Notes: generated from the letters alone by a model not told the origin. Positions 46,403-49,929 are shown, counted from the first letter of the stretch. The stretch is 64,000 bases of DNA from an archaeon (GCA_024278985.1 JAJRSC010000014.1:14366-78365); one strand, 5' to 3'. Made by a program: numbers and translations.

Positions 46403-46468
46403 GATTACTCTGAAAGTGATAGAGAACAGTTAAAAACAAGATTAGAGGCGTTTATTGAGATGATTTAA
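46403..46468 (+). pseudogene. C-terminal remnant of a 2-hydroxyacyl-CoA dehydratase/double-cubane (HgdB/DCCP) family gene
   Basis: Reads [21 protein letters not shown], the family's typical C-terminus; no start or body upstream. Confidence 0.75.
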
Positions 46469-46563
46469 ATTGAATTACATTTTTATTTTTTAACTGAAGT
46501 TATTAAATTTTCTAATATGAATTTTTATATCTTTTAATTGCATTAATTTATTTTTGTGGGAGT

Positions 46564-47210
46564 ATGATAGGAATATGTATAAGAACTAAAAAGGAATATA
46601 TTTTAAATAATAAATTCTTAGATTGGGGCCTACACTTTAATCCAAAAATTATAAAAAAAATAATATAATTGGATATCATGCACCTATTTTAGATATTGAA
46701 AAAAAGGAAAGTATTTCTATTTTAAAAAACATAATTGAAAAGATTATTGGAAGTGATTATTTAACAATCCATTTACACAACAGTAGAAAAATAGATATTA
46801 ATGAAGAAAAAATTATAGAAAATCTAACAATCCTAAATGAGTTTGCACAAAAAAATAATTTAAAATTATGCATAGAAAATTTAAGACGAGGATATTCATC
46901 AAATCCATACAATATTATTAAAATTGCTGATGAAGTTAATTGTTTTATAACATTTGATATTGGACATATTCCATATAATAAAAGATTGGAATTTTTAGAA
47001 ATTTGCTCTGATAGAATTTATAACTCCCATGTGTATGAAATTGAAAAGGATGGAAAACATCTTCCTCCTAAAAATCTTAACAATTTAAAACCAATATTAG
47101 ATGCTCTATTAGATGTTAAATGTGAAATGTTTTTAATTGAATTAATGGATATTAATGATATTTTAAAAACTGAAAAGATGTTAAAATAATATTTAGAAAC
47201 ATATAGGTAG
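46564..47210 (+). pseudogene. TIM-barrel metalloenzyme (AP endonuclease 2-like, MJ0008-like) with a frameshift
   Basis: MIGICIRTK...; one missing A in A8 at 46653-46660 restores GYHAP..TIHLH..CIENL..FDIGH..NSHVYE..HLPP; TAA at 47187-47189 is followed in frame by YLETYR*. Confidence 0.8.
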
Positions 47211-47232
47211 GAACATATTAGGTGATAGATTT

Positions 47233-48063
47233 ATGATAATTGATGAAAATAGCTCTAATTTTATTGATTTCAAAAAATCATTTAAAGAACTAACTTTATC
47301 TGATGAAACATTTAAAATTATTGAAGAAAATGGGTTAAAGCTGGGTGAAATTGCAGTTGGAGAATTTTCAGGTAGGGATAGCGTAGCGGCAATAATTAAA
47401 GCTATGGAGGAAGGTGTCGATGTTGTTTTACCAGTTGTTGGATTTACAGGAACTGATTATGGAAATTTAGATATCTTTTATAAAAACTGGGAAACTACAA
47501 ATAAAAGGATTAAAGAAATTGATAATGATAAAATTTTATTACCTTTACATTTTATGTTTGAGCCTGAACTTTGGAGAGCATTAAATGGTAGGTGGATTGT
47601 TTTACTTATTAAGAAATTTAACTATTACACACCATGTATTGGATGTCATGCATATCTAAGAATATTAAGAATTCCTTTAGCAAAACACTTAGGGAATAAA
47701 ATAATTAGTGGGGAGAGGGTTTATCACAATGGAGATTTTAAAATTGACCAAATAGAGGAAGTTTTAAATGTTTATAGTAAAATTTGTAAAGATTTTGGTG
47801 TTGAGCTAACTTTACCTATAAAATACATAAGAGAAGGCAGGAAGATTAAGGAGATTATTGGAGAAGAATGGGAACAAGGAAAAAAACAATTTTCATGTGT
47901 ATTTAGTGGAAATTATAGAGATAAAGATGGAAAGGTAATTTTTGATAAAGAGAGTATTTTAAAACTATTAAATGAATTTGTATATCCAGCATCAATTGAG
48001 ATTTTAAAAGAAGGATACAGAGGAAATTTTAATTATCAAAATATTGTGAAAAAATTTATTTAG
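47233..48063 (+). CDS. Uncharacterised PP-loop-like protein with three candidate Fe-S cysteines
   Basis: GEFSGRDS (SGGxDS variant), PCIGCH, IISGE, LPI, FSCVFS. Confidence 0.75.
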   Translation: MIIDENSSNFIDFKKSFKELTLSDETFKIIEENGLKLGEIAVGEFSGRDSVAAIIKAMEEGVDVVLPVVGFTGTDYGNLDIFYKNWETTNKRIKEIDNDKILLPLHFMFEPELWRALNGRWIVLLIKKFNYYTPCIGCHAYLRILRIPLAKHLGNKIISGERVYHNGDFKIDQIEEVLNVYSKICKDFGVELTLPIKYIREGRKIKEIIGEEWEQGKKQFSCVFSGNYRDKDGKVIFDKESILKLLNEFVYPASIEILKEGYRGNFNYQNIVKKFI

Positions 48064-48070
48064 TGAGAAA

Positions 48071-49351
48071 ATGAGAACTATTTTAATATTGTTAGATGGT
48101 TTAGGTGATAGGGCTTCTGAAATTTTAGGTAATAAAACCCCACTACAATATGCAAAAACTCCAAATATGGATAAATTGGCTAAAAATGGGATGTGTGGCT
48201 TAATGACAACATACAAAGAGGGAATTCCCTTAGGTACTGAGGTAGCTCATTTTTTACTTTGGGGCTACTCCTTAGATGAATTTCCAGGGAGAGGAGTTAT
48301 TGAGGCTTTAGGGGAAGATATTGAGATTGAAGAAAATTCCATATACTTAAGAGCATCACTTGGATTTGTTAAAAAGGATGAAAGGGGATTTTTAGTTAAA
48401 GATAGGAGAACAAAAGATATTGATAAAGAGGAGATTGAAAAATTAATAAATGACTTTCCCACTTTTGTAGATGGGTATGAGTTTGAGCTTTTTTATTCTT
48501 TTGATGTTCATTTTATATTAAAAATTAAAGAAAAAAATGGATGGATTTCAGATAAAATTTCTGATTCTGACCCATTTTATAAAAATAGATATGTTATGAA
48601 AGTTCAACCAATAAAAGAGTTATGTAAAAATGAAATTGAATATAATAAAGCAAAAGACACTGCTAAGGCATTAAATAAATATCTTTTAAATGTTTATAAA
48701 ATATTAGAAAATCATAAAATAAATAAAATAAGGAGAAAAGTAGGAAAAATGCCTGCTAATTTTTTATTAACAAAATGGGCATCAAGATATAAAAATGTGG
48801 AGAGCTTTAAAGAAAGATGGGGAATGAGAGGAGTTGTTTTAGGTAGCAGTTCATTATTTAAAGGATTGGCAAAATTCTTAGGAATGGATTTTATAAAAAT
48901 TGATAGCTTTGAAGAAGGAATAAGTTTAATTCCTAAGCTAAATTATGATTTTATTCATTTGCATACAAAAGAAACAGATGAAGCTGCCCATACAAAAAAC
49001 CCATTAAATAAGGTTAAAGTTATTGAAAATATTGATAAACTTATAGGTAATTTAAAATTAAATGATGATGATTTACTTATAATAACTGCTGACCATTCAA
49101 CACCTTCTGTTGGAAATTTAATTCACTCAGGAGAAAGTGTTCCAATACTATTTTATGGAAAAAATGTTAGAGTTGATAATGTTGAGGAGTTCAATGAGAT
49201 AAGTTGCTCAAATGGACATTTAAGAATAAGAGGGGAAGAATTAATACCTCTAATTTTAAACTATACAGATAGAGCTTTACTATATGGTTTAAGAGCAGGA
49301 AATAAATTAAGATATTACATTCCAAAAGATGATGACATAGAACTTTTATAA
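48071..49351 (+). CDS. Cofactor-independent phosphoglycerate mutase-like enzyme (alkaline phosphatase superfamily, MJ0010-like)
   Basis: LDGLGD, GTEVAH (Thr nucleophile), DSDP, DEAAH, TADHSTP, HS. Confidence 0.82.
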   Translation: MRTILILLDGLGDRASEILGNKTPLQYAKTPNMDKLAKNGMCGLMTTYKEGIPLGTEVAHFLLWGYSLDEFPGRGVIEALGEDIEIEENSIYLRASLGFVKKDERGFLVKDRRTKDIDKEEIEKLINDFPTFVDGYEFELFYSFDVHFILKIKEKNGWISDKISDSDPFYKNRYVMKVQPIKELCKNEIEYNKAKDTAKALNKYLLNVYKILENHKINKIRRKVGKMPANFLLTKWASRYKNVESFKERWGMRGVVLGSSSLFKGLAKFLGMDFIKIDSFEEGISLIPKLNYDFIHLHTKETDEAAHTKNPLNKVKVIENIDKLIGNLKLNDDDLLIITADHSTPSVGNLIHSGESVPILFYGKNVRVDNVEEFNEISCSNGHLRIRGEELIPLILNYTDRALLYGLRAGNKLRYYIPKDDDIELL

Positions 49352-49353
49352 AT

Positions 49354-49929
49354 ATGAGGGATAAGTTGATAAACAAATTAAAGAAAATACTTAAATTAGA
49401 TAAACAAAAAAAAGAAAAAGAAAGATTAGAAGGGAAGGGATTAATAATTTTTGAAAACACAAAGGATGCAATGAAAGCAGAATATATTTTAAAAGATAAA
49501 TATAATATTAGAGTAGTAGCTCCACCAGTAGAGATTAGAGAAGGATGTGATTTAGCTATTGAATATGAGTTAATTGATGAATTTGGAATTAAAAGAGAAT
49601 TGGAAAATAACAATATAAAGCCATTAAAATTTGTCTCTCTAAATGATTACTCTTTAAAACCTCTTGAGTTAATAAAAGTTAAAGAGATAGATGGATTTAT
49701 TTTAGTTAGATGTGGAAATATGAAAATAACATTAGATAAAGATGGAAATATAGTTAATATCTCTGGTGGAGGCTGTCCAGATGTTCCTTATTTAGCATTA
49801 AAATTAAAAGGGAGAAATATTAAAGATATTAAAGAAGATGAATCTCCAAAAAGTTTAGGATTTACATTATGTGCCTATACCTTAAATAAGGCCTATGAAA
49901 AAGCTAAAAAATTGTTTATAGAAAAGTAA
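49354..49929 (+). CDS. DUF3343 protein with a C-terminal IscU/NifU-N-like domain
   Basis: F.NT.DAMKAE...APP.EIREGCDLAI (DUF3343), then RCGNMKI..DKDGNI..GGGCP..LKGR..LCAY. Confidence 0.7.
   Translation: MRDKLINKLKKILKLDKQKKEKERLEGKGLIIFENTKDAMKAEYILKDKYNIRVVAPPVEIREGCDLAIEYELIDEFGIKRELENNNIKPLKFVSLNDYSLKPLELIKVKEIDGFILVRCGNMKITLDKDGNIVNISGGGCPDVPYLALKLKGRNIKDIKEDESPKSLGFTLCAYTLNKAYEKAKKLFIEK

Follow-up and report, generated by a model that had tools for sequence, protein, structure and literature searches.

A phosphoesterase, PP-loop and ApgM-like gene trio in a Methanocaldococcus-related genome: a candidate chalcogen-insertion pathway with a selenium context

Introduction

The PP-loop thiolases TtuA, NcsA and LarE share a layout in which a CxxC motif and one distal cysteine, with no fourth, hold a [4Fe-4S] cluster; the three cysteines leave one iron open for the sulfide that goes on to attack the adenylated substrate. 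In QueC, the cysteine site binds structural zinc. YcfA, according to its report, adenylates the O6 of GTP and adds L-cysteine, after which the pyridoxal phosphate (PLP)-dependent lyase YcfC leaves a thioamide, and Arg18 and Asp19 of YcfA are essential (PMC12494993). Here, we analyze positions 46403-49929 of a 64,000-nucleotide stretch of archaeal DNA (GCA_024278985.1, JAJRSC010000014.1:14366-78365; the whole stretch is called the window), which holds five co-oriented features around a PP-loop protein (PPL) with a YcfA-like predicted fold. An earlier annotation made from the DNA alone, the original prediction, had read these features as an Fe-S-dependent sulfur or selenium insertion operon next to sufCB.

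The three recognised selenium-utilisation traits are selenocysteine (Sec), 2-selenouridine and the labile selenium cofactor of molybdenum hydroxylases, to which selenoneine-type small molecules were added recently. In the excerpted text of Lin et al. 2015, DUF3343, YedE, YedF, an HGD-D subunit and an activase are already tied to SelD (PMC5322559). We find that PPL, an ApgM-like enzyme and a phosphoesterase form a conserved unit that in one lineage is embedded among these genes. We propose, at a probability of roughly 40%, that this module uses ATP to insert a chalcogen, probably selenium, into a phosphorylated, nucleotide-like small molecule. Sulfur or selenium insertion coupled to phosphoryl processing remains the best reading of the locus, with a unit of three rather than five genes.

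Results

All five features lie on the plus strand, as originally read, with the start of sufC 70 bp further downstream at 50000:

46403..46468, plus strand: 3'-terminal relic of a gene for a double-cubane-cluster reductase (HGD-D family); 66 nt, about 21 codons plus stop
46564..47189, plus strand: EndoIV-like TIM-barrel metallo-phosphoesterase gene (AP_endonuc_2, PF01261; profile match to MJ1311), frameshifted, one base short
47233..48063, plus strand: PPL, PP-loop-fold enzyme of 276 aa with a YcfA-like predicted fold, without Pfam or NCBIfam family
48071..49351, plus strand: ApgM-type alkaline-phosphatase-superfamily phosphotransferase/mutase of 426 aa (TIGR00306), paralog of the genome's presumed canonical ApgM
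49354..49929, plus strand: DUF3343 (PF11823; selenium/sulfur carrier-like) fused to a PF26554 domain, 191 aa

A scan of one genome per species returned 131 PPL relatives, from which 80 loci were kept: 7 from Methanococcales, 32 from Bacillota, as assigned by record title, and 41 others, among which Desulfobacterota predominate and Nitrospirota, Dehalococcoidia, Synergistota, Gemmatimonadota and Actinomycetota also occur. Open reading frames (ORFs) in flanks of 8 kb were called and clustered de novo. An ApgM-like gene stands beside PPL in 65 of the 80 loci, several of the misses falling at contig ends, and a phosphoesterase gene lies near PPL in 58, as a TIM barrel in 39 and as a PHP-domain protein in 19. 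The PHP protein is the Bacillota form (15/32 Bacillota loci), and the two look like alternative solutions for one phosphoesterase step. The order TIM barrel, PPL, ApgM-like recurs in five of six further Methanococcales regions. Given these frequencies and this order, the conserved unit under selection is the trio of phosphoesterase, PPL and ApgM-like gene, adjacent and co-oriented across phyla and hence co-conserved well outside close relatives.

The larger unit of five genes first proposed shrinks accordingly to a core of three, while its five families do recur together in some Methanocaldococcus and Desulfobacterota. One further Methanococcales region (at 2-20 kb of its genome) reads activase, double-cubane protein (DCCP), TIM barrel, PPL, ApgM-like, DUF3343 fusion, with intervening sequence after the activase. 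This fits the gene order given for MJ0007-MJ0011 in the original prediction, the MJ numbers themselves being unconfirmed.

PPL matches no Pfam family at E up to 0.01, PF01171 included, and no NCBIfam family. Searches of the PDB with the single sequence and with a profile returned chance matches only (E 0.17 or worse), and YcfA was not found by them. A structure model was computed with AF2 from a 24-sequence alignment (predicted local distance difference test score, pLDDT, 94.3). Its top structural match is YcfA from Erwinia amylovora, with Z 22.8, a root-mean-square deviation (rmsd) of 2.2 Å and 212 of 218 residues aligned; ThiI follows at Z 13.6, and MnmA, QueC, argininosuccinate synthase, LarE and NcsA lie at Z 8.7-11. 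By predicted fold, PPL is a member of the PP-loop ATP pyrophosphatase (adenine nucleotide alpha-hydrolase) superfamily and, as judged from the model, a whole-length structural homolog of YcfA and a YcfA-like predicted adenylating enzyme.

Residue conservation agrees with the PP-loop protein with CxxC plus a third cysteine that had been read from the DNA. The phosphate-binding loop is SGRDS in the window and (S/A)G(R/K)DS in the family, a variant of the SGGxDS type, and among the locus-encoded homologs G47 and D49 are present in 78/78, R48 and S50 in 77/78. The canonical second glycine of the loop is replaced by Arg or Lys, corresponding to the Arg18-Asp19 pair of YcfA. PPL contains only four cysteines (135, 138, 185 and 222), three of which make up a C135-x-x-C138-H139 plus C222 site; each of these three is conserved in 78 of 78 locus-encoded homologs and, in the order given, in 104, 105 and 104 of 105 full-length library representatives.

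Among 1.84 billion representatives, the PPL family comprises 280 clusters (50% identity) at E <=1e-3 and 130 at E <=1e-30, and it is a new clade of the PP-loop superfamily that lacks a Pfam or NCBIfam model. In a protein atlas, clusters of QueC, ThiI and DUF7411 are placed next to it. Distant relatives are fused to N-terminal TIR (CAP12/Pycsar type), PNP_UDP_1 phosphorylase or DUF4062 domains (P0363, P0376 and P0349) and keep the AG[RK]DS loop, the PCxxCH motif and the third cysteine; these fused forms came from an exhaustive profile search, a word-based search having returned none. Since TIR, PNP and DUF4062 are all nucleotide-processing domains, the fusions fit a nucleotide-like substrate. 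For the TIR and PNP parts there are matches to PADLOC effector models, and the fused relatives may be a defence-system branch of the family. As further variants, PPL carries an insertion of about 100 residues after its N-terminal third in one Methanococcales genus (G097-G099; P0034, 384 aa) and is split into two pieces, possibly a pseudogene, in G082.

The ApgM-like protein was correctly anticipated as an alkaline-phosphatase-superfamily phosphotransferase, and is of the ApgM type (TIGR00306, 352.9 bits against a cut-off of 320). It falls below every equivalog cut-off (317.7 against 489 for NF003104, and 222 against 468) and aligns over its full length with solved ApgM chains (PDB 2zkt, 3idd and 3kd8; E 3e-58). 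A second ApgM, 40% identical, is encoded on another contig of the same genome (G000:C4); with two copies present, the cluster gene is not a single-copy ortholog, and either of the two may be the glycolytic enzyme. The metal ligands D9, D13, D341, H342 and H352 are invariant in 64/64 cluster-linked homologs, and in a 65-sequence alignment that includes the own-genome paralog the nucleophile column holds Thr 36 times and Ser 29 times. H298 and D303 are invariant in the cluster subfamily, where the own-genome paralog has Asn.

The third member of the trio, previously described as a metal-binding TIM barrel, is an AP_endonuc_2 protein (PF01261, 38.8 bits against a cut-off of 31.1). With the start placed at 46564, one base is missing beside an A8 run near 46650-46660, which breaks the gene into a 34-codon head (stop at 46666-46668) and a 182-codon body in the frame of 46641-47189. 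This frameshift may be genuine or may stem from the assembly; a look-up of sequencing runs against which to check it and the rearrangement junction listed none. Recoding as selenocysteine was dropped as an account of the apparent breaks, as the TIM break is a change of frame and not a TGA. An intact ortholog of 215 aa is found in Methanocaldococcus sp. 16A (L002, 7321-7968), and the TIM ORF has matches in 7/7 Methanococcales loci. Seven residues of metal-ligand type (H39, H70, E105, D132, H135, H156 and E193) are invariant in 16/16 family members, and the profile of these 16 matches MJ1311 (3wqo) at E 6.9e-11 and endonuclease IV at E 3e-4 in the PDB. The best NCBIfam match is the phosphodiesterase CbiR, at 37.9 far below the cut-off of 105, and the protein is therefore not placed in that family. 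The TIM profile also weakly matches 'Art22' (E 0.006), and the PPL model matches the nitrile synthetase ArtA (Z 10.1); the entries concerned are 8z1i and 9lei. The names suggest that Art22 and ArtA come from one biosynthetic cluster, in which a PP-loop enzyme and an AP_endonuc_2 TIM barrel would likewise occur together.

The selenium link comes from the genes around the trio. Within 8 kb, selD (TIGR00476, 341 bits) is found at 13 of the 80 loci, YedE (TIGR04112) at 7, a half-size YedE at 4, YedF (TIGR03527) at 7, TusA at 5 and a selenium-metabolism LysR regulator (NF040786, 289.5 against a cut-off of 250) at 4; the DUF3343-PF26554 fusion and a Carb_kinase-like protein occur at 8 loci each, the double-cubane reductase (NF040772) at 7 and the activase (TIGR00241) at 3. 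All five window gene families recur together, beside selenium genes, in a second and very distant lineage, the Desulfobacterota, where operons such as L027 and L071 read double-cubane protein, activase, PPL, TIM barrel, ApgM-like, YedE, TusA, DUF3343 fusion, Carb_kinase-like, in some cases YedF, HAD-like and SelD. The co-occurrence with selD, yedE, tusA and hgdC that had been put forward as a check is seen here, as these operons hold selD, yedE, yedF, tusA and an HgdC-type activase. At the level of host genomes, SelD scores above cut-off in 75/80, 74 of these 75 with an in-frame TGA, and the five misses are metagenome-assembled genomes (MAGs). Among Bacillota, SelD is encoded by 30/32 hosts compared to 14/100 genomes of the same class, a sample that includes one host.

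The last gene was described as a DUF3343-IscU-like fusion. DUF3343 fused to a second domain is borne out (PF11823, 61.1 bits against a cut-off of 25), and the likeness to IscU is not, being limited to weak Foldseek matches. The label PF26554 for the second domain comes from precomputed database domains; our Pfam search of the protein at E up to 1 gave PF11823 only. Three cysteines are invariant in the fusion, that of a 'GCD' motif in 24/24 sequences, and an alternative start at 49366 would give the 187-aa form held in the protein database. Searches with the structure model (pLDDT 87.8) found no fold at E 1e-3 or better by Foldseek and none at Z >=8 in a wide search: IscU chains reach E 0.08-0.12 and TM 0.23-0.25, and the best matches of the C-terminal domain, at Z 5.8, are to unrelated folds. 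The idea of a dedicated cluster carrier thus finds no support in the fold and Pfam searches of this domain. The fusion lies within the flanks of the 8 loci counted above and is present in only 4-5/40 of the host genomes that are not of the TIM type, because of which it is an accessory and not an obligate part of the module. A complex prediction for PPL and the fusion scored 0.00 (mark 0.32), which weighs neither way. The same fusion occurs in Methanopyrus kandleri (P0144 and P0145), the other selenocysteine-using methanogen lineage, and no PPL locus of that lineage is among the 80 kept.

At the 5' end, the double-cubane C-terminal remnant that had been claimed is indeed present: the last ~21 codons match the 3' end of a relative's 372-aa gene. 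In Methanocaldococcus sp. 16A, the same gene order is preceded by this gene (L002, 6077-7195), which passes the double-cubane reductase model NF040772 with 504.5 bits (cut-off 350). Similarity of the window DNA to its relatives begins near 46390-46403, and the DNA upstream is unrelated. A full copy of the reductase gene is found on contig C2 of the same assembly (G000:C2:46309-47424; 373 aa, 97% identical to that of L002 over residues 1-372), directly downstream of a 246-aa BcrAD_BadFG (HgdC-type) activase. The relic and this copy have about 80 nt in common, namely the 3' end of the gene and about 12 nt past the stop. Because an intact own-genome copy shares these 80 nt, we read the relic at 46403-46468 not as decay but as the footprint of an ancestral adjacency left by rearrangement, or possibly as an assembly artefact; in this genome, reductase and activase have been relocated to a different contig. 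The view that the two 5' genes are decaying is therefore wrong for the double-cubane gene. On C2, the reductase-activase region (L086 1498-3523, minus strand) adjoins an anthranilate phosphoribosyltransferase-like gene and not, as in relatives, the module. A 290-aa multi-pass membrane protein without Pfam or NCBIfam family (window 45400-46272, minus strand) adjoins the rearrangement breakpoint.

The genes downstream of the module are a neighbouring housekeeping pair for Fe-S assembly:

50000..50746, plus strand: sufC
50682 (or later start)..51683, plus strand: sufB/D-like gene, overlapping the end of sufC

The link of this pair to the operon does not hold. A SufC ortholog stands beside the module in 0/80 loci and in 0/6 further Methanococcales regions, the 16 'SufC' matches being generic ABC ATPases of 25-31% identity, and in L002 the genes downstream of the module are hydantoinase-like. 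The 70-bp spacer before sufC contains a T-run, a TATA-like TTTATATA box some 50 nt upstream of the ATG, and GGTGA as a ribosome-binding site. From these signals sufCB is read as a separate transcription unit outside the conserved module, and with the adjacency not conserved a dedicated Fe-S assembly link was dropped. If its TTG start is used, the sufB/D-like ORF overlaps the end of sufC by up to 65 nt (window 50682-50746); with an internal ATG near 50736 as the start, the overlap would be of the usual short kind.

The window itself is part of a 78-kb contig in an assembly of 1.1 Mb and 30 contigs, estimated to be 86% complete. It is strongly AT-rich (G+C ~23-32%), and its closest protein matches are Methanocaldococcus, with 88% to M. 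bathoardescens. In another setting, in three Peptoclostridium loci (L010, L011 and L021) PPL and the ApgM-like gene have downstream of them a pstS-like gene, an unannotated family in two copies and an ABC ATPase, a set that resembles a phosphate ABC transporter, and upstream of them an FAD-oxidoreductase-like gene. A pstS transcript of M. maripaludis is reported to be raised under selenium depletion (PMC11097638).

Discussion

Starting from the gene content, conservation, fold, conserved residues and genomic associations that are directly established above, we infer each chemical step, the metal cluster, what the substrate is and that selenium is used rather than sulfur, with a chemistry modelled on YcfA and on what is known of TtuA, NcsA and LarE. 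PPL would bind ATP at its (S/A)G(R/K)DS loop and adenylate an oxygen, carbonyl or carboxyl, on a small molecule that is phosphorylated and probably nucleotide-like. Its three invariant cysteines would hold a predicted [4Fe-4S] cluster whose free iron presents hydroselenide (or hydrosulfide), displacing AMP to leave a seleno- or thio-carbonyl. The ApgM-like enzyme, with its Ser/Thr nucleophile and binuclear metal site, may then shift or remove a phosphoryl group, and the EndoIV-like TIM barrel, or the PHP phosphoesterase in Bacillota, may hydrolyse a phosphoester. In some lineages the chalcogen could be supplied from within the same operon by YedE, TusA, YedF, the DUF3343-PF26554 fusion as a cysteine carrier, SelD, and the double-cubane reductase with its ATP-dependent activase. 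A role in the biosynthesis of coenzyme B or coenzyme M was dropped, as the module occurs in many non-methanogens.

Several observations weigh against this proposal. SelD is encoded in 59/61 sampled Desulfobacteria, which leaves the host-level association without power there. To our knowledge all Methanococcales are Sec users, so that the SelD association is uninformative in this order as well; at the genome level it is informative only for Bacillota. It is mainly the Desulfobacterota-type loci that link the module to selenium or sulfur genes (17/41, compared to 1/32 in Bacillota and 1/7 in Methanococcales), and the related MAGs and genomes in these counts are not independent. The module is dispensable: PPL is encoded in 26/31 genomes of the own phylum, one of which has it in split form, and was not found in the other five, with 30 of the 31 genomes at >=90% completeness. 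The PPL profile does not significantly match the genome's own NcsA/TtuA-like protein (probability 0.2, E 0.3), and structural zinc, as in QueC, could occupy the Cys3 or Cys3His site instead. The nearest solved relative differs at the chalcogen step, since YcfA uses L-cysteine and a PLP lyase; in the main text of its report 'zinc' and 'Fe-S' occur 0 times and 'iron-sulfur' in the reference list only (PMC12494993). Finally, according to the excerpts of Lin et al. 2015, YedE, YedF, TusA and DUF3343 are able to handle sulfur in addition to selenium (PMC5322559).

On another reading, PPL would insert no chalcogen at all and be an adenylating enzyme like QueC, ArtA or argininosuccinate synthase (an amidotransferase, nitrile synthetase or ligase) that acts on a phosphorylated metabolite, with structural zinc at its cysteine site, in a pathway of phospho-metabolite salvage or modification. 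These three enzymes match the PPL model at Z 9-10.7 (QueC at 10.7), and QueC is also among the families adjoining PPL in the protein atlas. The paucity of sulfur or selenium genes near the Bacillota loci (1/32), the pst phosphate transporter beside the three Peptoclostridium loci, and the fusion of distant members to TIR, PNP and DUF4062 domains without any sulfur context point the same way. However, the thioamide-forming YcfA stands far above all other structural matches (Z 22.8 against <=13.6), the Desulfobacterota operons place the module between selenium/sulfur carriers and selD, and SelD is enriched among the Bacillota hosts. We consider a pathway without chalcogen possible, though rather doubtful.

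Alternatively, the chemistry may be as proposed and the element sulfur: a small molecule or cofactor precursor would be thiolated, and the selenium link would reflect shared sulfur and selenium trafficking together with the ecology of strict anaerobes. All solved chalcogen-inserting relatives, that is YcfA, ThiI, MnmA, LarE, TtuA and NcsA, insert sulfur; DUF3343 may traffic either element and YedE is distantly similar to sulfur transporters, as far as the excerpts of Lin et al. describe them (PMC5322559); and the linkage to SelD is limited to Desulfobacterota-type loci, where SelD is near-universal. This reading has to account for selD, a selenium-type LysR regulator and YedE and YedF equivalogs in the same operons, for SelD in nearly all Bacillota hosts against the low background of their class, and for the archaeal members of the 80 loci being Methanococcales only, which are Sec users. 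A sulfur-only pathway therefore seems unlikely to us.

A role for PPL in tRNA modification, as a thiolase or selenolase of the TtuA, TtcA or NcsA type, is very improbable. PPL does share the PP-loop fold and the CxxC plus C layout with these enzymes, TtuA and NcsA are among the Foldseek matches at E ~1e-4, and in the non-significant comparison with the own NcsA/TtuA-like protein the sole aligned stretch puts C222 on the 'PCPY' cysteine of that protein's third-cysteine motif. Yet PPL lacks PF01171, the genome already has PF01171 proteins elsewhere, the terminal CxxC zinc-finger pairs of the own-genome 298-aa homolog are absent from PPL, and NcsA matches at only Z 8.7 with an rmsd of 5.7 Å. Moreover, PPL has a phosphomutase-type enzyme and a phosphoesterase as conserved partners, neither of them required in any known system of tRNA thiolation. 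The original likeness to TtuA, TtcA and MnmA thus gives way to a small-molecule enzyme, YcfA, as the closest solved relative.

Lastly, a chance juxtaposition of the five genes and sufCB in the assembly, to which the sufCB adjacency unique to this contig among the loci examined, the rearranged 5' end and a possible MAG misassembly might point, is scarcely credible as an account of the locus, being contradicted for the three-gene core by its co-oriented adjacency across phyla and by the accessory genes that recur independently in Desulfobacterota, and it stands only for sufCB.

Returning to insertion of selenium by the trio, we tentatively suggest, as a step beyond the general proposal and a doubtful one, that the TIM/PHP-PPL-ApgM-like trio is the core of a fourth selenium-utilisation trait of Sec-using anaerobes. 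Here, a [4Fe-4S] PP-loop 'selenotransferase' would make a seleno-carbonyl nucleotide- or nucleobase-like metabolite or cofactor, with selenium delivered via YedE, YedF, TusA and DUF3343 and reduced by the double-cubane enzyme. The trio within selenium clusters would then give the orphan YedE, YedF, DUF3343 and double-cubane reductases a candidate downstream consumer. Its central enzyme, by predicted fold, is the structural twin of a thioamide-forming nucleotide enzyme, and the module may mark a new microbial route that builds selenium or sulfur into a small molecule. As Methanococcus-type genomes also carry the trio, and M. maripaludis is amenable to genetics through markerless deletions (PMC11097638), the function of the trio is directly testable.

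In the open-access PMC and bioRxiv literature, with subscription papers and supplements outside the scope, we found no description of a PP-loop/ApgM-like module. For Lin et al. 2015 (PMC5322559), a text search listing gives 0 occurrences of 'PP-loop'; the terms phosphoglycerate, DUF3343, PP-loop and yedE are all missing from the Haft 2022 preprint (10.1101/2022.07.06.499078); and the module genes are absent from the main text of the M. maripaludis selenium transcriptome paper (PMC11097638).

How, then, does the module relate to described systems? With YcfA (PDB 9kq6, 9kq7, 9kq9 and 9kqd), PPL shares the predicted whole-chain fold, the Arg-Asp pair in the ATP loop (R48 and D49 in PPL) and a single-domain architecture without an RNA-binding module. 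The two are only ~14% identical, and the invariant CxxCH plus C site is a feature of PPL, unlike YcfA. Furthermore, YcfA takes its sulfur from L-cysteine with the help of YcfC, whereas the partners of PPL are a phosphotransferase and a phosphoesterase; among annotated neighbour families shared by >=4 loci there is no PLP-dependent enzyme, no search having been aimed at one. TtuA, TtcA, NcsA and the [4Fe-4S] form of LarE resemble PPL in the PP-loop fold and in the CxxC plus distal Cys without a fourth ligand. PPL differs from them in lacking PF01171 and zinc fingers and lies at a distance (Z 8.7-9.6, LarE about 9.5), and its cluster is a predicted one. The ApgM-like protein has the subfamily cut-off, the metal ligands and the nucleophile position in common with canonical ApgM and departs from it in failing the equivalog cut-offs and at H298 and D303.

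As to the genomic setting, the selenium neighbourhoods in the excerpted text of Lin et al. 2015 hold DUF3343, YedE, YedF/SirA-like proteins, a 2-hydroxyglutaryl-CoA-dehydratase-like subunit and an activase together with SelD, as do the module operons; a PP-loop enzyme, an ApgM-like protein, a TIM or PHP phosphoesterase and the DUF3343-PF26554 fusion are not named in those excerpts (PMC5322559). Compared with these systems, the module, as a candidate PP-loop system for chalcogen insertion, is distinguished by a new enzyme family, by its new partners and by its selenium context.

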